Positions 7,333 to 34,427 of a stretch of DNA of 41,872 nucleotides are shown here, piece after piece; positions within the stretch are counted from its first letter, which is position 1; each line of letters begins with the position of its first letter. Both the position numbers and the translations under genes were made by a program. Source of the DNA: a virus. The notes beneath the pieces were generated by a model. The model saw only the letters and a list, made by a program, of their open reading frames with translations. It did not search any database and was not told the DNA's origin. Where the stretch lies: IMG/VR virus record IMGVR_UViG_3300048599_000085, positions 1 to 41,872 of that record; one strand, written 5' to 3'.

Positions 7333-8060
7333 GCGCGCTGGAGAAAATCAATATCATCCCGCCTGCGGAGCCGGCGGCCTTGACGCCGATGGATATGCTC
7401 AATCGTGCGGTGGGACAGGGCGCGAGTATCGAGGTTCTTGAAAAGCTAATGACGCTTCAGGAACGTTGGGAGGCCAATCAGGCTCGCAAAGCATTCGATG
7501 AGGCGATGGCGGCGGCGAAAGCCGAAGTCCCAACGATCACGAAGAACCGCGAGGTTGATTTCAGTTCATCCAAAGGGCGGACCAACTATCGGCACGAAGA
7601 CCTCGCAGAGATCGCGAGAACGGTTGACCCGATCCTGAGCCGACACGGCCTTTCATATCGATTCCGTGTGACATCCAATATTAGCGAGCCGGTCACGGTC
7701 ACTTGCATCCTCTCGCACCGCGCCGGCCATTCCGAAGAAACGACGCTCAGTGCAGGCCGCGACGACAGCGGCAACAAGAATAGCATCCAAGCGGTCGGTT
7801 CGGCCATTACCTACCTACAGCGCTATACGCTGAAGGCCGCGCTCGGTCTCGCGGCTTCAAGCGACGATGACGGCGGCGCATCCGAACAGCCGGCTTACGT
7901 CTCGACCAATCAGCTCAATCAGCTTGTCGCTCTGGCTGATGAAGTCGGAGCGGATAAAGAGAAGTTCTGCCGCTACCTGCGAGTTGGTAGCTTGGCTGAG
8001 ATACCAGCTGAGAAATTCGCCCATGCCGTTCAGCTATTGGAAGCCAAGAGGGGGAAGTAA
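7329..8060 (+). CDS. erf: Erf-family single-strand annealing recombinase
   Basis: Motifs YRHEDLAEIARTVDPILSRHGLSYRF and SIQAVGSAITYLQRYTLKAALGL are typical of the ERF family. It sits next to the exonuclease and SSB genes. Confidence 0.75.
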   Translation: MSALEKINIIPPAEPAALTPMDMLNRAVGQGASIEVLEKLMTLQERWEANQARKAFDEAMAAAKAEVPTITKNREVDFSSSKGRTNYRHEDLAEIARTVDPILSRHGLSYRFRVTSNISEPVTVTCILSHRAGHSEETTLSAGRDDSGNKNSIQAVGSAITYLQRYTLKAALGLAASSDDDGGASEQPAYVSTNQLNQLVALADEVGADKEKFCRYLRVGSLAEIPAEKFAHAVQLLEAKRGK

Positions 8061-8680
8061 TGGAGATTATCACCTGCGAGCAGGGGTCTTTGGAGTGGTT
8101 TGCGGCGCGCGCCGGTCTTGTCACGGCAAGCGAGTTCCAGACCTTACTCATGAAGGGGAAGGGCGGCGGTGAGAGCCTGACCCGAAAGACCTATATGCGC
8201 AAGCTAGCCGGCGAGATCATCACTGGCGAGCCCATGGAGGCGTTTACGAACGCTCACATGGAGCGGGGGAAGGCTATGGAGCAAGAGGCTCGCGATCTTT
8301 ACGCCTTCATGAACGATTGCGAACCGCTTCAGGTGGGGTTCATCAAATCTGGCCGTAAGGGAGCGAGCCCCGACAGTCTCATTGACGAGAGCGGAGGCTT
8401 GGAAATCAAGACCCGGCTTCCTCACCTGATGATCGAGCTTCTCGAGTCTGGGGAAATACCGTCCGAACATCTCGCCCAGATTCAAGGCGGGATGTGGGTC
8501 GCGGAGCGGGAATGGTGGGACTTCGTCGCCTATTGGCCGAAGCTTCCGCTTTTCGTGAAGCGGGTTTACCGCGACGAATCCTACATCAAGAAACTGTCTG
8601 ACGCGGTGGATCAGTTCAACGGAGAATTGGACGCGCTCGTGGATCGAATCAATGCCTATGACTTGAAGGAGGCAGCATGA
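8060..8680 (+). CDS. YqaJ/lambda-Exo-like recombination exonuclease
   Basis: N-terminus [21 protein letters not shown] plus a PD-(D/E)XK-like core ([15 protein letters not shown]). TAATG overlap with erf. Confidence 0.8.
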
Positions 8681-9135
8681 GCGGATCTGTCAATAAGGTA
8701 ATTCTGATCGGTAATTTGGGTGCCGATCCGGAAATCAAGCGTACGCAGGACGGGCGGCCGATCGCGAATCTGAGCGTCGCGACCTCGGACACCTGGCGCG
8801 ACAAGAACACCGGCGAGCGCAAGGAGAAGACGGAGTGGCATCGCGTCGTCATCTTCAATGAAGGATTGTGCCGGATCGCCGAGCAGTACCTGAAGAAGGG
8901 CGCGAAGGTGTATCTCGAAGGCCAGTTGCAGACCCGCAAGTGGCAGGACAAGGACGGCAAGGATCGCTACTCCACCGAAGTGGTGCTCCAGAACTTCAAT
9001 TCTGCGCTGACCATGCTCGACGGTGCGGAGGGGCCATCCTCATCGCGCGGAGATGCCCGGCGGGAGAACTCTTACGCCAGCGCCACGGGACGCAGCCAGC
9101 CTTCGTCCGACATGAATGACGATATCCAATTCTGA
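8677..9135 (+). CDS. ssb: single-stranded DNA-binding protein
   Basis: [53 protein letters not shown]..., with an acidic C-terminal tip DDIQF. Confidence 0.95.
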
Positions 9136-9143
9136 GTATCGCC

Positions 9144-9527
9144 ATGTCTCAAACAGTGATCCTTCATAGCCAATCTCAGCGATCATTTGCCAAGCAGATG
9201 ATTGACCGCGCGCCTATGGATGCCGTTCTGACGATCCGCGCTGCAACACGCTCGACGGACCAGAACGCGTTGCTTTGGGCGCTTCTGTCTGACGTGTCCC
9301 GAGCTAAGCCGGAAGGACGCTGTCATACAGCTGAGGTTTGGAAGAACCTGTTCATGCATGCCTGCGGTCATGCCGTGCAGTTTGAAACGGGGCTTGACGG
9401 CAAGCCATTCCCGGTCGGCTTCCGATCGTCGCGGCTGACCAAGGCGCAATTCAGCGATCTCATCGAATTTATCCATGTGTGGTGCGCGGAGAAGGGCGTT
9501 CACCTTGAAACGAGGGAGGCCGCATGA
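9144..9527 (+). CDS. ninB: NinB/Orf-family recombination mediator
   Basis: RSTDQNALLWALLSDVSRAKPEGR..WKNLFMHACGH parallels lambda NinB (RSLDQNRKLWACLGDVSRQV..WKCVF). Confidence 0.8.
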   Translation: MSQTVILHSQSQRSFAKQMIDRAPMDAVLTIRAATRSTDQNALLWALLSDVSRAKPEGRCHTAEVWKNLFMHACGHAVQFETGLDGKPFPVGFRSSRLTKAQFSDLIEFIHVWCAEKGVHLETREAA

Positions 9528-9964
9528 GCCTGTCAGCCAAGCGCCAATTCTCGCTCGACCGTGTCGATAGTATGAATACGAGCCATCGTGAGCTTGTTCA
9601 CGAGTTTGGCCTGACGATTGTGAATGCCTTCATCAAGCACGGCATTACCAGTCCGGTAGTTATTCGAGAAATTATGCGTGAGGTATGGGGTGGTGCTCGC
9701 CAAGCCGGACAGCGCGTCGGCACGCTCGGTTCCTTGGATAGCCTTCTGATCAACTCAGGATCGTCGCTAACTGCCAGCGGGTTGCAGAGGTTTCTCGCTG
9801 ACAATCATCATTTCATAGTCTCATCCGAGCCATCCCGCGCGATGATCGAGGCGAGTATGTCTGAGGTAAGCGGATTCTCGACACGATGCACGAAAGAAGA
9901 GAAGCATCGTCGCAGACTTCGTGCCGCAATTCGTGCGTCATCAACAGAGCGAGGCGTGGTATGA
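9524..9964 (+). CDS. hypothetical protein
   Basis: 146-aa ORF with ATGA coupling at both ends. Confidence 0.55.
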   Translation: MSLSAKRQFSLDRVDSMNTSHRELVHEFGLTIVNAFIKHGITSPVVIREIMREVWGGARQAGQRVGTLGSLDSLLINSGSSLTASGLQRFLADNHHFIVSSEPSRAMIEASMSEVSGFSTRCTKEEKHRRRLRAAIRASSTERGVV

Positions 9965-10314
9965 GCGTTCAGTCACCTCGCAAATCTCTCACCCGTAATA
10001 AGCGTGCTGAGCTTTTCTTAGAGCATAGCGGCATCTGCTATCTGTGTGAGCGTCCTATCAACGCAGCCAGGGGCGAGGCTTGGGAGGTCGAGCACGTCGA
10101 GGCACGAGAGATTAGCGGTCGTGACGATTGGGCCAATCTGCGCCCGGTGCATATCGTCTGTCATAAGCCAAAAACAGCAGCCGACAAGAAGGTAATCGCG
10201 AAATCGAACCGGGTTCGCAATCGCAATCTTGGCATCAGAAAGCCGTCCAGCTTTGCTTGCTCCCGCAACTCTATCTGGAAAAAGAAAATTGATGGATCGG
10301 TGGTGCGCCGATGA
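9961..10314 (+). CDS. HNH endonuclease (HNHc type)
   Basis: Start ATG at 9961 (ATGA overlap). Motifs CYLCERPI..WEVEHVEAREISGRDDWANLRPVHIVCHKPKTAAD. Confidence 0.8.
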   Translation: MSVQSPRKSLTRNKRAELFLEHSGICYLCERPINAARGEAWEVEHVEAREISGRDDWANLRPVHIVCHKPKTAADKKVIAKSNRVRNRNLGIRKPSSFACSRNSIWKKKIDGSVVRR

Positions 10315-10871
10315 AGCGTCCCGAGGAACAGATTCAGCGGGCCGTCGTGTCGCATCTGAAAGCGAGGTCCATGCCTGGCATTGTTAAATACGGGAAGGGA
10401 AATCGATGGTTGAAGGAAACCGTAACGGAGCGTTTTGATAGATTTACAATACCGGACCCGAACAGTGGATGTCTCCTTTGGCTAGGATCGAATGATCGCA
10501 ACGGTTATGGCCAGATGCGTGTTGAGGGAAAGCTTCGATTTGCTAGCCATATTTCTCTTGAAATAGCTGGGAAGCCAGTTCCGGTAGGAATGAACGCGTT
10601 GCATCGATGCGACAACCCAGCCTGCGTTAATTCTGAGCACTTATTTATCGGAACTCAACGCGACAACGTCGATGACATGCACAAAAAAGAACGTGGGAAT
10701 TTATCCGGTCTTGCAATTGGAAGAGGTCATAACCGTCTATCGGATAGACTCCGAGCGGACGCAAAATCTCTTTTCATGAATGGCCTCAGCGGCTCTCAAA
10801 TCGCCCGCCATCTCAATATCAGCAAGACTACTGCCTGCGCCTTGACGAGAGGGTGGAGGGCGTTGCCGTGA
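10311..10871 (+). CDS. HNH_3-type homing endonuclease with C-terminal HTH, carrying a 23-codon N-terminal copy of the VRR-NUC 5' end
   Basis: CLLWLGSNDRNGYGQMRV..ALHRCDNPACVNSEHLFIGTQRDNVDDM (HNH_3) and GLSGSQIARHLNISKTTACALTRG (HTH). N-terminus KRPEEQIQRAVVSHLKARSMPG aligns with [22 protein letters not shown] of the next gene. Sharp GC3 drop after 10379. Confidence 0.8.
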   Translation: MKRPEEQIQRAVVSHLKARSMPGIVKYGKGNRWLKETVTERFDRFTIPDPNSGCLLWLGSNDRNGYGQMRVEGKLRFASHISLEIAGKPVPVGMNALHRCDNPACVNSEHLFIGTQRDNVDDMHKKERGNLSGLAIGRGHNRLSDRLRADAKSLFMNGLSGSQIARHLNISKTTACALTRGWRALP

Positions 10872-11254
10872 ATAGACCGGAACAAGAAATTCAAAAATTA
10901 TTATTCAAGCATATTCGGTCGCGAGCGATGCCTGGCGTATTTGCCTTTCATTGCCCGAATGGCGGGAAGCGTTCGAAAATAGAAGCATCTATTTTCAAAG
11001 GACTTGGGGTCAAGGCTGGAATTCCAGATGTTCTTATCTTCTACCGCGCCCAGATATTCGGGCTTGAGCTCAAGGCCGACAGTGGACGCCTGACGCCGAT
11101 CCAGCGGCAAGCCTTGAATGAGATGGAAGTGGCCGGGGCCAGAACGGCCGTCGCTCACAGCCTCGATGAGGCGCTGGTGACCCTGGAATGCTGGGGCGTG
11201 CTGCGTCGGGACGGGAATCGCAGTTTTACAACACCGGAGGGAAAGCATGTCTGA
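10868..11254 (+). CDS. VRR-NUC domain nuclease
   Basis: GTG start overlapping the upstream TGA (GTGA). PD-(D/E)XK signature [19 protein letters not shown] and [13 protein letters not shown]. Confidence 0.8.
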
Positions 11255-11513
11255 CGTGACGATTGGACACAATTCAGCAACGGCCGTTGCGGCCGATCAG
11301 TTGCGCGCGATCATCGAACGGGTGGAGCGCCTGGAGGAGGACAAGAAGGCGATCAGCGACGACATCAAGGATATTTATGCCGAGGCCAAGGGCAACGGCT
11401 ACGACGTCAAGGCGCTACGCACGATTGTCCGCCTGCGTAAGCAGGATGCCGATGAGCGTGCCGAACAGGAGGAAATCCTGGAATCGTACATGCATGCGAT
11501 GGGGATGGTATGA
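11247..11513 (+). CDS. DUF2312 / GapR-like DNA-binding protein
   Basis: [69 protein letters not shown] matches the UPF0335/GapR pattern. SD GGAGGG. Confidence 0.85.
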
Positions 11514-12226
11514 TCACAAACGAATGCATCGACGCCGCCTTGAAGGAGCTTTCCGCAGTTGGAATCACCGGAACGGTGCGCCCGTCTGGCAAGCATGCTG
11601 CCATAGAATGGAAGCGCGGCGACGATGATCGCACATACCATGCCGCTCTGACGCCTTCTGACCGCCGCGCGCACCTTAATGTCAGATCCGACATTCGCAG
11701 GATGCTGCGCGCCGATGGCCTCCTTCATGACGAGGATGACATGATCGCCGGTGACCGGCCGCGGCTTGTCTTGGCGGATGGCCGCTTTGTCTGCGACAGC
11801 AGGGATATTGCCGCCCACTTCAGCAAGCAGCACAAGAATGTCCTGCAATCCATCGATAAGATCATGGAAGAATTGGGAGAATTTGGTCGGCTGAATTTTC
11901 AGCCGATCTCATATCTTGATAACAGCTCACGCCGGCAGCGCGCTTTTTGTCTGACGCGGGACGGATTTTCTATACTGGCAATGGGATTCACCGGCGATGC
12001 CGCGTTGGCATGGAAGGTGAAGTACATCGACGCCTTCAATGCCATGGAAACCGAGCTACGGCGCGTTTCCCCTGCGTCTCTGCCATCAGATGTAGAAGCC
12101 CGGCTCGGAAAACTGGAGGGGGACCTTAACGCTCTGATTGATCTTTCTCTGTCTCAACCAATGCCAGAGCCGGGATTCATCATCGTGAAATCATACAAGC
12201 GGCGGGCGCGGAGGGCCGCTGCATGA
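11510..12226 (+). CDS. Rha-family phage regulatory protein with an unassigned N-terminal domain
   Basis: The central/C-terminal block [65 protein letters not shown] is typical of Phage_pRha. Confidence 0.75.
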
Positions 12227-13101
12227 ATCGATGGTGGAGGGCATACGAAGAAGCGGCGACCGACCCGAAGCTTCAGCTTCTGCCGGCAGAATTGTTTCGT
12301 ACCTGGTTCAACATGATGTGCATTGCATCGCGCAACGATGGCAAGCTTCCAGCACTCGCTCATATAGCCTACACGCTTCAGATGAAGGTGGATAAGGCGG
12401 CGCAGGCGCTGGCACAGCTTCATCGTGCCGGTCTTTTGGACAAGACGGAAGACGGATTTAAACCGCACAATTGGGATGGCCGCCAGTACAAGAGCGACCG
12501 TGACGTATCGAGCGCGGAACGGTCAAAGCGCTACCGTGACGCAAAGCGTGACCGTCACGGTAGCGTCACGCGTGACGTCACGGACCCGTCACGCTCCCCA
12601 GAGACAGAGACAGAGACAGAGACAGAAAACAAACACTCTCGGTCGGTCGCCAAGGCGACGCGACCCCGTGAGAGCCATTTCGACGAATTCTGGGAAGCCT
12701 ATCCGCGCAGGGATGGGCCAAATCCCCGCAAGCCGGCTGAGCAACGGTTCAACTCGCTGGTCAAATCAGGCGTTGACCCCGGCACGATGGTCGAGGAGGT
12801 GAAAAAGCTTGCTGTGGATGAGGGCACGCGCGGCAACATCGGCACCAGGTTCATCCCGCAGGCCATCACCTGGTTGAACCAGCAGCGCTGGGCAGATCAT
12901 GCTGCCGTCGCGGTGATGCAGCAATCCGCCGCTGCCGAGCGTTTATCTACCAAGGTCCACGTCAAGGCCGATACGCCGCAATGGCGGGCGTGGGCGCAAC
13001 ATCTTGGCCGCGAGCCGCCTCAGGACAGGCATTTCGGCTGGAGTTTCGACTCGGAGTGGCCGCCGGGACATGAGGCTTCCGTTTCGGAAGCTTCACTTTG
13101 A
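12223..13101 (+). CDS. replisome-organiser / replication-initiation-like protein (DUF1376/YdaU-like N-terminus)
   Basis: 292 aa. The call rests on position (last large early gene), the N-terminus WFNMMCIASRNDGKLP..LHRAGLLDKTEDGF, and an internal iteron cluster as in lambda O. The family assignment is tentative. Confidence 0.5.
   Translation: MNRWWRAYEEAATDPKLQLLPAELFRTWFNMMCIASRNDGKLPALAHIAYTLQMKVDKAAQALAQLHRAGLLDKTEDGFKPHNWDGRQYKSDRDVSSAERSKRYRDAKRDRHGSVTRDVTDPSRSPETETETETENKHSRSVAKATRPRESHFDEFWEAYPRRDGPNPRKPAEQRFNSLVKSGVDPGTMVEEVKKLAVDEGTRGNIGTRFIPQAITWLNQQRWADHAAVAVMQQSAAAERLSTKVHVKADTPQWRAWAQHLGREPPQDRHFGWSFDSEWPPGHEASVSEASL
12496..12625. promoter_or_regulatory. candidate replication origin: cluster of GTGAC/GTCAC iterons followed by (GAGACA)x4
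   Basis: 8 GTGAC/GTCAC pentamers in about 100 bp, including ACCGTGACG twice (12497, 12533), the palindrome GTGACCGTCAC and CGTCACGCGTGACGTCACGG. (GAGACA)4 lies at 12601-12624 and encodes ETETETET. Confidence 0.45.
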
Positions 13102-13739: not shown

Positions 13740-13779
13740 CCCGCCCGGTCGTTTGATCGCGGCGGGTTTTGTTTTGGGA
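13740..13779 (+). terminator. intrinsic terminator between the early-right operon and the packaging/late genes
   Basis: Stem CCCGCC-CGGTC / GATCG-(C)-GGCGGG with loop GTTT and one bulge, followed by TTTTGTTTTG. Confidence 0.6.
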
Positions 13780-13803
13780 AGGGGCGACCCCGGATTAAGG
13801 CAA

Positions 13804-14241
13804 ATGGCGAAGGCGACAGTAGAAATTCGATCAAAAGCTAGGTCTTATACGGACAGTGCTATTCGCGTGTTGGCTGAGATTATGAATAGCCCATCCGCTC
13901 CGCCGTCTGTTAGAGCCAAAGCTGCCACGGAGTTGTTGAACCGTGGGCACGGCACCCTGTTGGCTGACCATGCAGTATTTGTGTTGGATAACCGAGAATT
14001 CTACGTTTATTCGGTTCACGACAAGAGCGGATCGCTTATCTACATCGGCAAGGGTCGAGGGCGCCGCAGCTTTAGTTCGGCTGCCAGATTGAATGGTAAG
14101 GCTCGTATCAGGGCGATTTTTACGAGCGAAAAGCAGGCACTTTCATTTGAGAGAAGGCTGATTGAGAGCTTCAGGCCAATTAACAATTTCGTCTTTAATA
14201 GAGACGGATTTATCCCGCTCGATCAGCAATTTAAGCAATAA
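13804..14241 (+). CDS. GIY-YIG homing-endonuclease-like protein with a small-terminase-like N-terminal segment
   Basis: Preferred ATG at 13804 (AAGG upstream). GIY-YIG core FYVYSVHDKSGSLIYIGKGRGRRS...E. N-terminus AIRVLAEIMNSPSAPPSVRAKAATELLNRGHG resembles the TerS N-terminal motif. AT-rich region. Confidence 0.7.
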   Translation: MAKATVEIRSKARSYTDSAIRVLAEIMNSPSAPPSVRAKAATELLNRGHGTLLADHAVFVLDNREFYVYSVHDKSGSLIYIGKGRGRRSFSSAARLNGKARIRAIFTSEKQALSFERRLIESFRPINNFVFNRDGFIPLDQQFKQ

Positions 14242-14244
14242 AAA

Positions 14245-14565
14245 ATGGCTGGACGACCAAAGGGATCGCTCAATAAAGACAAGCCATTTCGTGAGGCTCT
14301 GCGAATGGAGCTCGCCTCTCTCGGGGAAGGTGATCCTAAAGCGCTCAGGTCTCTTGCTCGTAATCTCCTGACAATAGCGGCTACCTCAGAAGGATTGTCA
14401 GCAATTAGGGAAATCGCTGATCGCCTTGATGGTAAGCCTGCTCAGGCCATTATCGGTGGTGACGGCGACGACCCCGCAATCAGCATGATCCATAGGATTG
14501 AGCGAGTTATCGTTGACGCGCAGCTTGCAGATTCCAACAGCGAGGATATTCCGGCCGCTTCTTGA
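14245..14565 (+). CDS. terS: putative terminase small subunit
   Basis: 106 aa immediately upstream of and overlapping TerL. Motif AIREIADRLDGKPAQ is typical of small terminase N-terminal domains. Confidence 0.55.
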   Translation: MAGRPKGSLNKDKPFREALRMELASLGEGDPKALRSLARNLLTIAATSEGLSAIREIADRLDGKPAQAIIGGDGDDPAISMIHRIERVIVDAQLADSNSEDIPAAS

Positions 14566-15805
14566 TCCGTCACGCTACAAGGCGGCGTTCGGCGGGCGCG
14601 GCAGCGGAAAGTCTCAGTTCTTCGCAGATATGCTGATCGAGGATAGTCTGTACGAGAAAGGGCTTCGGTCGGTCTGTATCCGCGAGGTGCAGAAGTCGCT
14701 CAAGGATTCAGCCAAGCGGCTTATAGAGGACAAGCTATCGAACAACCGGCTTGGCGAGGCCGATGGGTTCAAGGTCTTTCGTGAAGTGATCGAGACGCCA
14801 GGCGGCGGCGTTATCATTTTCCAAGGGATGCAGGATCACACGGCGGAATCCATCAAGTCGCTTGAAGGCTTCAAGCGTGCATGGTGCGAGGAAGCGCAAA
14901 CATTAAGCGCGCGGTCTCTGTCATTGCTTCGCCCGACGATCCGCGTTGACGGGTCCGAGCTATGGTTTTCGTGGAACCCGCGTCGGAAGAACGACCCCGT
15001 CGACATGCTGTTGCGTGGTGACAGCACGCCAACAAATTCAAGAGTTGTCCGCGCCAATTGGTCAGATAATCCATGGTTCCCAAAAGTGCTTGATCAGGAG
15101 CGGCTTGATTGCCTTCGTGATAATCCGGATCAATACAATCACATCTGGGAGGGCGATTACGCTGGCGTTGTCAGCGGCGCATATTACGCCGCATGTTTGA
15201 CAGAGGCGAGGGCAAAGGGCCGGATTGGCAAGGTATCGGCTGATCCGCTGATGACATATCGGGCGTTCTTCGACATTGGCGGCACGGGCGCAAGGGCGGA
15301 CGCGGTCGCAATCTGGATCGCGCAATTCGTCGGGCGCGAAATCAGGGTGCTCGATTATTATGAGGCTGTTGGCCAGCCGCTCGCAACGCATGTGACATGG
15401 CTGCGAGCGAATGGATACGGCAACGCGCTGATTGTCCTGCCGCACGACGGAACAACGCAGGACAAGGTTTTTGACGTGTCCTATGAGAGCGCGTTTCGTG
15501 ACGCCGGTTTTGATACCGTCGTTATCCCTAACCAGGGCAAGGGCGCCGCGTCGATGCGGATTGAATCCGGTCGACGGCTGTTTCCGTCGATATGGTTCAA
15601 TGAGGAAACGACGACGGCGGGGATCGATGCATTGGGCTGGTATCACGAGCGCAGGGACGAAACCCGCAACATCGGCCTTGGGCCGAACCATGACTTTTCG
15701 TCTCACGGCGCGGATGCATTCGGTTTGATGTGTATCGCCTATGAAGCGCCGAACGACGAACCCGTGAGGCGTCGTCGACAAGCCTCGGGCTGGATGAGCG
15801 CATAA
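14498..15805 (+). CDS. terL: terminase large subunit
   Basis: Walker A GGRGSGKS; ..VCIREVQKSLKDS..; nuclease-half motifs (FFDIGGTGARADAVAIW, HDFSSHGADAF). No in-frame ATG near the 5' end, so the start is uncertain (TTG at 14498, 14513 or 14525). Confidence 0.85.
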   Translation: MSELSLTRSLQIPTARIFRPLLDPSRYKAAFGGRGSGKSQFFADMLIEDSLYEKGLRSVCIREVQKSLKDSAKRLIEDKLSNNRLGEADGFKVFREVIETPGGGVIIFQGMQDHTAESIKSLEGFKRAWCEEAQTLSARSLSLLRPTIRVDGSELWFSWNPRRKNDPVDMLLRGDSTPTNSRVVRANWSDNPWFPKVLDQERLDCLRDNPDQYNHIWEGDYAGVVSGAYYAACLTEARAKGRIGKVSADPLMTYRAFFDIGGTGARADAVAIWIAQFVGREIRVLDYYEAVGQPLATHVTWLRANGYGNALIVLPHDGTTQDKVFDVSYESAFRDAGFDTVVIPNQGKGAASMRIESGRRLFPSIWFNEETTTAGIDALGWYHERRDETRNIGLGPNHDFSSHGADAFGLMCIAYEAPNDEPVRRRRQASGWMSA

Positions 15806-32068: not shown

Positions 32069-32617
32069 ATGGAGGGCAGCATGCCTGAAAGGGAGAGCAT
32101 AACCGCTGAATACGTGCGTTCCAGACTCTCATACGATCCAGAGAGCGGCGTTTTGCAGTGGAAGCCCATTACAGGTCACCGCTGGGCGGCTGCATGGAAC
32201 GCCAAATTCGCAGGTACTGCTGCCGGGCGCGTTGACTCAACGGGTTATATTCAGGTGGCGATTAACGCGAAAAGATACCCGGCAACGCATCTAATTTGGA
32301 TCATCGTTACGGGTGCATGGCCAGTGGCGATGATAGATCATAAGAATCGCTGTCGAACTGACAATCGTTTGATCAATTTGCGCGAAGCTAGTCGCACCGA
32401 AAATATCAGAAATAGCGGACCAAAGCGCCCGTTCTACAAAGGCGTAAAGCGCACATCATCGATAATTGAACGGTGGCAAGCCAGAATCTCGGTTGGTGGA
32501 GAATACAAGCACCTCGGTGTGTTCGATACCCCGCGTGAAGCGGCCGTTGCTTACGACAATGCATCCCGTGAGTTTTTTGGCGAGTTTGCTTGTCCGAATT
32601 TTGGCGAGCGAACATGA
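32069..32617 (+). CDS. HNH + AP2-domain homing endonuclease, inserted between holin and spanins
   Basis: YVRSRLSYDPESGVLQWKP; MIDHKNRCRTDNRLINLREASRTENIRN (HNH); YKGVKR..WQARISVGGEYKHLGVFDTPREAAVAYDNASREFFGEFACPNF (AP2). An alternative ATG at 32081 follows GGAGG. Confidence 0.85.
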   Translation: MEGSMPERESITAEYVRSRLSYDPESGVLQWKPITGHRWAAAWNAKFAGTAAGRVDSTGYIQVAINAKRYPATHLIWIIVTGAWPVAMIDHKNRCRTDNRLINLREASRTENIRNSGPKRPFYKGVKRTSSIIERWQARISVGGEYKHLGVFDTPREAAVAYDNASREFFGEFACPNFGERT

Positions 32618-33318: not shown

Positions 33319-33921
33319 ATGATCCGCGCTATTGCGGCGGGGCTCGGCATTGCCGTGGCCGCGCTCGCGCTCGCTTGCCTTTTCCTCGATTCTCCGGCTC
33401 ACGCCCGCAACGCGCGGACTACTGCTATGCATCCGATGTGCAACGTTCTTTGGCCATGCACTGTACCAAGCGGCGGAAAAGTAAAATCCGAACGCGCGGG
33501 ATTATACCCTTCGAAACAGGATCGGGCTCGCATCGCCCGTGCGGAGCGCTTCCGCAACGTGGATTTCGGCTCGCCGCTCTATCCACCAGAAACCCAGAGG
33601 TCGTTTCTTCGAGGCGTAGAAATTCTCGGAGGAAGGCCTGCGGGTTGCCCGCGTCGTTTCTGTGGCTGCGGCGTGTCACTCAAAGTCTTTGGCCGCATAA
33701 TCCCAGACTTAAACCTAGCCGCAAATTGGAAGCGCTTTGCGTCGGCAACGCCGGGCGCGGGGACCGTGGCTTGGCGGCCGGGACATGTCCTATTCGTCGA
33801 AGCTCATTTGGGCGGAACAATGTATCAGGTTTACGATCCAAACAGCGGCGGCGGTAAAATCCGCAGACACGTTAGGAACCTCGCTGGATATAGATTTGTA
33901 GACCCGAGCAGGCCCGCCTAA
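33319..33921 (+). CDS. secreted CHAP/NlpC-P60-like cysteine peptidase candidate
   Basis: Preferred ATG at 33319 (GAGG upstream). Signal-like MIRAIAAGLGIAVAALALACLFLDSPAHA. Candidate Cys (CPRRFCGCGVS) and His (WRPGHVLFVEAH) motifs. Assignment is tentative. Confidence 0.45.
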   Translation: MIRAIAAGLGIAVAALALACLFLDSPAHARNARTTAMHPMCNVLWPCTVPSGGKVKSERAGLYPSKQDRARIARAERFRNVDFGSPLYPPETQRSFLRGVEILGGRPAGCPRRFCGCGVSLKVFGRIIPDLNLAANWKRFASATPGAGTVAWRPGHVLFVEAHLGGTMYQVYDPNSGGGKIRRHVRNLAGYRFVDPSRPA

Positions 33922-34427
33922 GCGCGCCGCATGTATTCACCAAAACTCTTGGCTGCCGCTACCATGTAGGCCTTGTGAGCCTCCTCAGCGGTATCAAACG
34001 CTCCCAATTCCCGACGAGTCCCGCGAACATAGATGTAGGCAATGTATCGCTGGTCTCTTTTGTGGAACGAGACGCCCTTAAATCCTGATGTGTTCGTTAC
34101 ATAAGTCTTCCTATTAAATCCATTCTGCGCCTCGTTCACATCTCGCAGATTGGCAATCCTATTATCCGATGGGTCACCGTTTATGTGGTCAATAAACCCG
34201 TCCGGCCATTTCCCATAGACATGAAGCCACACAATTCGGTGCGCCTGACGATGCTTACCTTCAAAATGGAAGGCCAAATAGCCTTGACCGTTCTTTCCGC
34301 CCGCGATGTCTCCAATCGTTACGCGGGCGGCTGGCTTAATCTTCCATCGAAGGATTCCGGTTCTTGGATCGTAATCCAACGCCTCCCGAACCCTTTCGGC
34401 GGTTAGATCGTTTATCGCCTTCGACAT
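33918..34427 (-). CDS. HNH + AP2-domain homing endonuclease
   Basis: VREALDYDPRTGILRWKIKP; FIDHINGDPSDNRIANLRDVNEAQNGFN; FKGVSFHKRDQRYIAYIYVRGTRRELGAFDTAEEAHKAYMVAAAKSFGEY. Low GC. Confidence 0.85.
   Translation of the reverse strand: MSKAINDLTAERVREALDYDPRTGILRWKIKPAARVTIGDIAGGKNGQGYLAFHFEGKHRQAHRIVWLHVYGKWPDGFIDHINGDPSDNRIANLRDVNEAQNGFNRKTYVTNTSGFKGVSFHKRDQRYIAYIYVRGTRRELGAFDTAEEAHKAYMVAAAKSFGEYMRRA

Follow-up and report, generated by a model that had tools for sequence, protein, structure and literature searches.

A candidate homing-endonuclease cassette inside a bacteriophage VRR-NUC gene carries a replacement for the 5′ part of its target

Within the 41,872-nucleotide (nt) viral record IMGVR_UViG_3300048599_000085 of IMG/VR (positions 1 to 41,872; hereafter the window), an open reading frame (ORF) for an HNH endonuclease lies inside a VRR-NUC gene: it begins with the first 23 codons of that gene, as known from intact alleles, and is followed by a second, complete VRR-NUC ORF whose 5′ part is of a different type. 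The segment 10309–11049 is, in our judgement, probably a mobile homing-endonuclease cassette that resides within VRR-NUC and rebuilds the gene that it interrupts. The argument draws on the architecture of the locus, an empty site in a near-identical phage, a chimeric VRR-NUC gene, near-identity of the cassette in diverged backbones and a decayed derivative. Related loci and proteins are given by L and P numbers, and features of the window are collected in Table 1.

The HNH ORF (10311–10871, plus strand) encodes 186 amino acids (aa); the VRR-NUC ORF (10868–11254, plus strand) encodes 128 aa and has a GTG start. The two overlap as GTGA, the HNH stop being the TGA at 10869–10871, an arrangement that would couple translation of VRR-NUC to that of the HNH ORF. 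At the other end the ATG at 10311 overlaps the TGA of an upstream gene for a 117-aa HNH protein (ATGA), and the same overlap occurs in the uninterrupted locus L001. The last part of the HNH ORF (10824–10871), including a GGAGG motif, is retained in relatives that have lost the rest of the HNH gene. The second ORF is called VRR-NUC by PHROGs and matches the corresponding Pfam family (PF08774) with E = 9.4e-5 and 22.9 bits against a cut-off of 23.8; its close homologues carry PF08774. The PD-(D/E)xK core is present as IPDV and GLELK, with the Asp in the foreign part of the gene and the E-x-K in the resident part.

A preliminary description of this DNA, made from its sequence, held that an HNH endonuclease gene had entered VRR-NUC with duplication of the 5′ end of its target; the ORFs and the match of the upstream copy to intact alleles bear this out. 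Codons 1–23 of the two ORFs share 10 of 23 residues and 37 of 69 nt, in line with the homology that it reported, and both copies end in the 9-mer ATGCCTGGC (10371–10379 and 10928–10936), which in each forms codons 21–23 (Met-Pro-Gly). Removal of 557 nt (10380–10936) joins upstream codon 23 to VRR-NUC codon 24 and does, as claimed, recreate an in-frame gene; the frame is kept with a length that is not a multiple of three because the two ORFs are in different frames. The 10/23 similarity between the copies is weak taken alone, and one repeated 9-mer pair within 740 bp is about what chance provides (approximately one pair, from 740^2/2 divided by 4^9). The observation is nonetheless far beyond chance, because the 23 upstream residues are identical, 23 of 23, to the N-termini of intact VRR-NUC proteins that come from other samples.

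The step in base composition that had been sought is real. The G+C content at third codon positions (GC3) is 0.74 in the upstream copy (10311–10379), 0.47 in the HNH body, 0.37 in VRR-NUC codons 1–57 (0.39 in codons 1–23, 0.35 in codons 24–57) and 0.72 from 11039. Among 874 windows of 57 codons from the other ORFs the mean is 0.63 (standard deviation 0.10), and 1% lie at or below 0.37.

Uninterrupted relatives, for which the preliminary description proposed to look, exist. L001, the contig of P0045, has the gene order of the window (NinB, a 146-aa ORF, the 117-aa HNH, VRR-NUC, GapR) and is 100% identical to it over 9500–10310 (811 bp), and its VRR-NUC is uninterrupted: two near-identical genomes are polymorphic for presence and absence at one site. 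The N-terminus of the L001 protein matches that of the HNH protein at 23/23 residues (65/69 nt), and the GC3 of its gene is 0.71–0.74. Across 10920–11049 L001 differs from the window at 8–18 positions per 50 nt; the two are similar again from 11040, with 1–7 mismatches per 50 nt over 11050–11299, and from codon 58 L001 is the closest relative of the window VRR-NUC.

Protein searches for VRR-NUC alleles returned two kinds. Empty-type alleles (P0042, P0036, P0035, P0044, P0045, P0038 and P0037) start MKRPEEQIQRAVVSHLKARSMPG, are identical to the start of the HNH ORF at 23 of 23 residues and are near-identical to the window VRR-NUC past the 5′ part. Cassette-type alleles (P0039–P0041, P0043 and P0047–P0049) carry the low-GC residues 1–57 of the window, most of them with a different C-terminal part. 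Judged by these two kinds of allele, the window VRR-NUC is a chimera of a foreign 5′ part and a resident 3′ part. The earlier suggestion that the 5′ part, to about 11040, is foreign and low in GC agrees with this: it matches L002, L003 and L005, and not L001. The accompanying idea that the downstream copy had been synonymously recoded does not hold, since it differs at 13 of 23 residues in codons 1–23 and at 12 of 34 in codons 24–57 (manual count), as a divergent foreign allele would. We also considered whether alleles of the P0046 type record loss of the HNH gene by recombination between the two 5′ copies. This was ruled out: over codons 24–57 they share 91% aa identity with the cassette and only 72% nt identity, and their GC3 is 0.68, for which reason they are regarded as independent natural alleles. 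One relative has a 215-aa ORF (P0066) that combines an empty-type VRR-NUC with the GapR-like protein encoded after it, probably because of a frameshift or an error of assembly close to the 3′ end of VRR-NUC.

The segment 10309–11049 recurs, at least 99% identical, in the window, L005 (JGI 3300020576), L002 (NCBI GCA_054403495.1) and L003 (ENA ERZ27283008), the last two lacking an internal 429 bp. The parts 10309–10397 and 10824–11049 are 100% identical to the window in L002 and 97–100% identical in L003. The flanks differ, by 0–30% downstream and with unrelated genes upstream. Divergence starts at 11050: directly beyond it L002 and L003 have 14–17 mismatches per 50 nt, and L002, whose downstream flank is on average ~23% divergent and whose upstream gene has no nucleotide match to the window, has 11–20 per 50 nt across 11050–11299. 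L005 holds the same composite with an intact HNH gene (99% aa identity) behind a different upstream gene; its cassette differs from that of the window at 6 nt, 4 in the fragment and 2 elsewhere. Upstream neighbors of the cassette loci are of three unrelated types (31–55% aa identity), the upstream genes of L005, L002 and L003 being 31–35% identical to the 117-aa HNH of the window. In all cassette loci VRR-NUC codons 1–57 have a GC3 of 0.35–0.39, followed by 0.63–0.75. Co-conversion tracts, near-identical in diverged backgrounds, are thus present on these contigs.

L002 and L003 encode a 43-aa remnant of the HNH protein, beginning MKRPEEQIQRAVVSHLKARSMPGIVKYGK joined to 14 further residues (the same remnant is P0211); start codon, reading frame, GGAGG and GTGA overlap are all preserved in it. 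Because the deletion is the same in both, they represent one decay event. Empty, intact and decayed states have thus all been sampled, as in the textbook homing cycle.

Several wider searches were made. Among phage GenBank records a blastn search with 9000–12500 matched the GapR and NinB genes only, and the cassette was in no record. In IMG/VR the HNH protein retrieved nothing beyond a VRR-NUC N-terminus (L007), and a search for exact copies of a 26-mer from the low-GC VRR-NUC 5′ end was empty. JGI metagenome contigs and GTDB genomes, queried with the VRR-NUC protein, yielded only VRR-NUC genes of 40–57% identity and no added cassettes or empty sites. An exhaustive search of representatives with residues 1–80, across the junction, returned only P0211 and P0178 and no further protein spanning both halves. 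P0178 is a 210-aa HNH protein, 63% identical over residues 24–80, that starts exactly at the junction-proximal peptide L-IYEYGKGNRWLGETVQQRFDRF; this is either the native start of the endonuclease at the fusion point or the product of an ORF cut by the contig end.

The left-hand (5′) fragment deserves separate treatment, and here several earlier proposals had to be revised. Co-conversion had been thought one-sided. The window and L001 differ by 4 single-nucleotide polymorphisms (SNPs) in the 69-nt fragment and by 0 in the 811 bp upstream (Fisher p = 3.5e-5), and the fragment of the window is identical, 69/69 nt, to the copy in L002; for these reasons conversion was two-sided and the fragment arrived with the cassette. 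A VRR-NUC 5′ end does give the endonuclease its start, as proposed, but in this genome it is not the resident one. At the four SNPs the window and L002 read TGAT, L001 and L005 AACG, and L003 AGCG; these haplotypes are uncoupled from the type of upstream gene, and crossovers have therefore occurred in or beside the fragment. Codons 21–23 of the upstream-type copy read ATGCCGGGC in L001, L003 and L005, and the repeat is 8/9 in L003 and L005. The 9-mer is thus present at both positions in the window but fails as a boundary repeat or target-site duplication, not being conserved as an exact repeat; it represents conserved Met-Pro-Gly codons at the point where homology between the copies ends.

Nor was the fusion made in this genome. 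L004 encodes a 67%-identical HNH protein, C-terminally truncated (144 aa), with the same junction after Met-Pro-Gly, and the fusion is older than this genome because that divergent protein shares it. The fragment of L004 matches the VRR-NUC gene of L022, another natural allele, at 61/69 nt, with a 38-nt exact run, and matches the fragment of the window at only 51/69; the HNH bodies of L004 and the window share 214/354 nt. The fragment is renewed time and again from local VRR-NUC alleles, which is what a homology arm would lead one to expect. On the right, crossovers always lie in a conserved stretch coding for 11 residues (11040–11049), the first likeness between donor and recipient. The L004 locus, on a short contig, is unusual in another respect: at 819–1642 the fragment-bearing HNH is followed by a RusA-like ORF and not by VRR-NUC, and in a comparison with L022 2999–3391 the contig end (1609–1642) proved 100% identical to the last part of the VRR-NUC gene there. 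It seems that the body of VRR-NUC (approximately codons 25–119) has been replaced there by the HNH gene plus a RusA-like gene. RusA and phage VRR-NUC proteins may, from PHROG annotation, both act as junction resolvases.

The endonuclease itself looks intact. Its Pfam matches are HNH_3 (PF13392; E = 1.9e-4, 21.5 bits against a cut-off of 24.8), zf-His_Me_endon (PF05551; E = 2.6e-4) and HTH_23 (~2e-4); PHROG families of HNH endonucleases reach 1e-23, covering residues ~29–133 only. H98, C100, D101, C105, H110, N119 and D122, invariant in 25 family members, are all present; the features expected of a beta-beta-alpha-metal motif, with its catalytic His (H98), conserved Asn/Asp and Cys/His zinc ligands, are thereby covered. 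Apart from P0002, no member of the HNH family has the VRR-like N-terminus, which is therefore not a conserved domain of that family, the circumstance that would have spoken against the preliminary description. An AlphaFold2 (AF2) model has a mean predicted local distance difference test score (pLDDT) of 85; in it the VRR-derived part is a lone helix (residues 4–19), and the linker (residues 20–29) has a pLDDT below 50. Three familiar settings for such a gene were rejected. A group I intron was discarded because no Rfam family matches 9800–11600 at E <= 1 on either strand, and the VRR-NUC ORF is complete without splicing. An intein is contradicted by the stop codon that closes the HNH ORF and by the lack of any Hint or intein match in Pfam. 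Nor is the HNH ORF a free-standing intergenic gene: it starts with VRR-NUC codons 1–23 at the native ATGA start and interrupts VRR-NUC.

The closest relatives of the HNH protein offer a plausible point of origin. P0003 (L006) and P0005 (L025), free-standing homologues of 61–62% identity with unrelated N-termini, are encoded directly 5′ of VRR-NUC genes, in L006 with an ATGA overlap between the two; P0006 (L024), 45% identical, is encoded directly 3′ of a VRR-NUC-domain gene. In its gene neighborhoods this HNH clade is specifically associated with VRR-NUC genes. Because its nearest relatives sit directly 5′ of VRR-NUC, the unit formed by the HNH gene and the VRR-NUC start that follows it corresponds to the free-standing arrangement.

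We propose the following course of events. The ancestor would have been an endonuclease gene that stood free, immediately 5′ of VRR-NUC, like those of L006 and L025. In a single illegitimate repair event, a VRR-NUC gene broken after codon 23 may have been joined onto the 5′ end of the endonuclease gene. The product could be retained: it was in frame, translated from the start of the target, and a full VRR-NUC was rebuilt. From the fusion onward the element would possess target-derived homology on both sides: the orphaned 5′ fragment would provide the start of translation and a left homology arm that travels along, and the right arm would be the conserved catalytic core. The predicted enzyme would cut naive VRR-NUC alleles within the replaced region (~codons 20–57), a location that we place by inference only, and double-strand-break repair would copy the cassette into the naive gene. 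The invaded gene would stay functional by way of the complete ORF rebuilt downstream and would probably be immune, with its upstream copy truncated and its downstream copy diverged.

Other explanations have to be set against this one. Nuclease genes at the boundaries of exchange are a documented feature of phage mosaicism (PMC10448857), and the segment could be an ordinary mosaic module, moved between co-infecting phages and prophages by general homologous or illegitimate recombination, in which the HNH gene is a passenger or a nuclease with some other role and does not spread itself. The HNH-deleted cassettes of L002 and L003, still found in diverged backbones, would fit such a module. A defunct copy can, however, be mobilized in trans, as with mobE and I-TevIII (PMC2790892); the closest HNH relatives are attached specifically to VRR-NUC genes in otherwise unrelated contexts; and the change from ~100% identity to as much as ~30% divergence at 11049/11050, beside an intact endonuclease gene and combined with presence and absence, is the classical footprint of homing. 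We consider a mere mosaic module unlikely. The VRR-NUC-derived N-terminus might also be a working part of the endonuclease, contacting for instance VRR-NUC, DNA or a partner, beyond its service as start and homology arm. It lies in the translated frame, is conserved at the protein level (23/23 to intact alleles) and is modeled as a helix; in the second system described below, 15/15 GIY-YIG-like proteins keep a terminase-like N-domain of ~50 residues and have no other recognizable DNA-binding domain. A working N-terminus is compatible with the homing cassette, not exclusive of it, and seems to us rather unlikely, given that the 61–62%-identical free-standing relatives do without the fragment, that it is joined through a linker of low confidence, and that in DNA it tracks local VRR-NUC alleles and does not co-diverge with the HNH body.

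Two tandem, homologous 5′ ends could in principle reflect a local duplication of VRR-NUC in which the first copy decayed and the HNH gene inserted independently. The copies differ by 46% in nt and by 0.35 in GC3, diverged backbones carry the identical composite, and the downstream gene is chimeric (foreign 5′, resident 3′), a structure that already contradicts this scenario and makes it very improbable. An assembly artefact or chimeric contig has nothing specific in its favor, and, with the same junctions in independent assemblies from different samples and sources (L005, L002 and L003), its probability is next to negligible.

A number of points weigh against the homing cassette as we read it. 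Few independent invasions are documented (at least two right-flank types, three upstream types, and in L002 and L003 a single decay event), and a deletion is expected to be in frame by chance in one case out of three. All relatives come from metagenome contigs, mostly short. One family member, P0010 (L026; 46% identical), does not adjoin a VRR-NUC gene. The Pfam scores for HNH_3 and VRR_NUC fall just under the gathering cut-offs; a PDB sequence search with the HNH ORF gave no match, and the best Foldseek match in the PDB, I-PpoI, is weak (E = 0.05, TM 0.23) and accompanied by generic helix-turn-helix matches. Cleavage of the naive allele by the predicted endonuclease, and immunity of the invaded one, are deduced from the sequences. 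Around the junction the downstream copy differs from the naive allele of L022 at only ~7/43 positions (manual count), and because of this immunity is not obvious if the target lies near the junction.

A second low-GC island in the window (GC 0.49 in 13801–14400) is built of the same three parts, here around an unrelated nuclease. A GIY-YIG-like ORF, with a Pfam match to the GIY-YIG motif at E = 0.008 and 43 columns invariant across 15 family members, precedes a 106-aa small-terminase-like ORF (14245–14565), and the large terminase is next. The uninterrupted protein P0175 (L027, L028) starts MAKATVEIRS... like the GIY-YIG-like ORF and ends GKPAQAIIGG... like the 106-aa ORF. Window positions 13833–14430 (598 nt) replace 121 nt of L028 (258–378), and on either side identity to L028 is 100% (13740–13832 and 14431–14639). 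The terminase-like N-domain is kept in all 15 aligned family members, which are 54–77% identical, and in four diverged IMG/VR loci (L029–L032) a small-terminase-like gene of the downstream type of the window lies ~15–40 nt past the GIY-YIG-like ORF.

The two cases together raise the possibility of a general class in phages: non-spliced intragenic homing cassettes, made of an orphaned 5′ fragment of the target, an endonuclease gene and a diverged replacement for the 5′ part of the target that would restore function and probably confer immunity to cleavage, in at least two nuclease families. Whether such a class exists we regard as evenly balanced. If it does, the GIY-YIG-like lineage, with its 54–77%-identical members of the same layout, would be old and widespread, and the design would free the endonuclease from the need for a conserved upstream neighbor.

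Table 1. Features of the two candidate cassettes and their surroundings in the window
Feature	Coordinates	Strand	Remarks
Upstream neighbor: gene for 117-aa HNH protein (PF01844)	9961..10314	+	Identical in L001; context, outside the cassette
Minimal shared segment, probable mobile cassette (5′ fragment of VRR-NUC, HNH gene, foreign 5′ part of VRR-NUC)	10309..11049	+	
Orphaned VRR-NUC codons 1–23; putative left homology arm	10311..10379	+	Gives the ATG of the HNH ORF
ATGCCTGGC, codons 21–23 of the upstream fragment	10371..10379	+	Not conserved as an exact repeat
HNH_3 endonuclease body with C-terminal helix-turn-helix and stop codon	10380..10871	+	
In-frame HNH deletion in L002 and L003	10395..10826	+	429 bp (143 codons) lost between AAG triplets 10395–10397 and 10824–10826, one kept
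Shine-Dalgarno-like GGAGG	10855..10859	+	8 nt 5′ of the VRR-NUC GTG, within the 3′ end of the HNH ORF; read from the sequence
Foreign, low-GC VRR-NUC codons 1–57	10868..11039	+	Includes the catalytic-motif Asp codon of IPDV
ATGCCTGGC, codons 21–23 of the downstream, complete VRR-NUC	10928..10936	+	
Resident-type VRR-NUC remainder, codons 58–128	11040..11254	+	Begins in the conserved 11-residue-coding stretch holding the right crossover
GIY-YIG-like ORF	13801..14241	+	First ~50 residues homologous to the N-terminus of the small-terminase-like gene interrupted
Foreign 5′ part of the small-terminase-like gene	14245..14430	+	Behind the GIY-YIG-like ORF
Resident remainder of the small-terminase-like gene (GKPAQAIIGG... 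to stop)	14431..14565	+	Identical to L027, L028 and the P0175 C-terminus

The VRR-NUC locus lies in a recombination and replication module (8060–12226) with genes for a YqaJ-like exonuclease, SSB, NinB, HNH, VRR-NUC, GapR and Rha. Of this module only GapR has nucleotide matches across many phage records, whose hosts include Mesorhizobium, Rhizobium, Agrobacterium and Caulobacter; these matches indicate that the phage or prophage has an alphaproteobacterial host. No tRNA gene was detected in the window, which holds at least five homing-endonuclease-like genes, the PF01844 HNH at 9961–10314 included. Further HNH_3 endonuclease ORFs lie at 32069–32617 (plus strand) and 33918–34427 (minus strand), the latter with an AP2 domain; their N-termini bear no obvious likeness to neighboring genes, a point on which no dedicated comparison was made. 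Relatives have additional HNH genes at sites that are vacant in the window (L001 4646–5722; L005 3879–4250 and 5902–6480; L002 439–969); directly after GapR, for example, L001 has a 358-aa HNH and L005 an HNH_4 gene. Phages of this group differ greatly in the endonuclease genes that they carry.

For annotation, cassettes of this kind would account for chimeric alleles, for small ORFs like the 43-aa remnant and for odd, short stretches of similarity between the N-terminus of a nuclease ORF and that of the next gene. In natural samples the VRR-NUC locus is caught at three stages of the homing cycle (empty, intact and decayed), and the window offers two testable pairs of enzyme and target: HNH with VRR-NUC and GIY-YIG with the small-terminase-like gene.

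How does the arrangement compare with known systems? Phage homing endonucleases have been described as encoded within introns or inteins, as free-standing genes that spread by intronless homing with co-conversion, or as gene-splitting insertions (PMC2988022). None of the three settings fits: there is no ribozyme or intein, the ORF lies inside its target, and the target is not split. A limited literature search turned up no description of this layout in phages. With the free-standing seg and mob genes of T4 the cassette shares the HNH and GIY-YIG families, the lack of an intron or intein, a patchy distribution among close relatives and, on our reading, spread by double-strand-break repair with co-conversion of flanking markers (PMC2988022), and its closest HNH relatives are themselves free-standing, directly 5′ of VRR-NUC (L006, L025). 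Free-standing endonuclease genes, however, sit between genes and rely on homology in both neighbors, whereas this cassette lies within the target ORF; the same cassette can stand beside three unrelated upstream genes because target-gene sequence flanks it on both sides, homology that the duplicated target fragment would supply.

Gene-splitting insertions include mobE in nrdA of Aeh1, mobA in the T4 topoisomerase genes 39/60 and seg43(25) in gene 43 (PMC2988022), and also fractured genes with split inteins (PMC2677866). There, too, an endonuclease occupies an essential or useful coding region and the phage function is kept; the difference is that two pieces reassemble or are spliced, whereas here a full-length ORF is restored and 23 codons are left over. 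Intron-encoded HNH enzymes of the I-HmuI and I-TevIII type have target-gene flanks on both sides and follow the same logic of homing with exon co-conversion, whereas the present element has no ribozyme (Rfam), ends in a stop codon and requires no splicing.

The closest parallel comes from fungal mitochondria, where gene hybrids with mobile ORFs (mORFs) are described in atp6 of Allomyces macrogynus, in atp6, atp9, cox2 and nad3 of Glomus sp., in atp9 of Rhizopus and in cox2 of Mortierella; the native duplicate is closest to the uninvaded relative, the inserted one being only 64–81% identical, and the family in Glomus atp6 is LAGLIDADG (PMC3630166). As in the phage, an endonuclease ORF lies within a protein-coding gene with no intron or intein and can be in phase with it, a foreign, diverged terminal part travels along and keeps the gene whole, and the native part is left as a duplicate relic. 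Here the host is a bacteriophage instead of a mitochondrion, HNH_3 and GIY-YIG-like proteins are the nucleases, and the defining combination of endonuclease, foreign terminal duplicate and native relic is found at the 5′ end. The fungal order is gene core, foreign C-terminus, endonuclease and native C-terminal relic, with the 3′ end duplicated; the phage order is its mirror image, a native-type N-terminal relic fused to the endonuclease, then the foreign N-terminal part, then the resident core. Because the duplication is at the 5′ end, the relic gives the endonuclease its start codon. Besides self-splicing and gene splitting, this would give a homing endonuclease a third means of residing, at no cost, within a coding sequence of a phage, and the key to such residence would be the replacement that it carries for the end of the gene it breaks.

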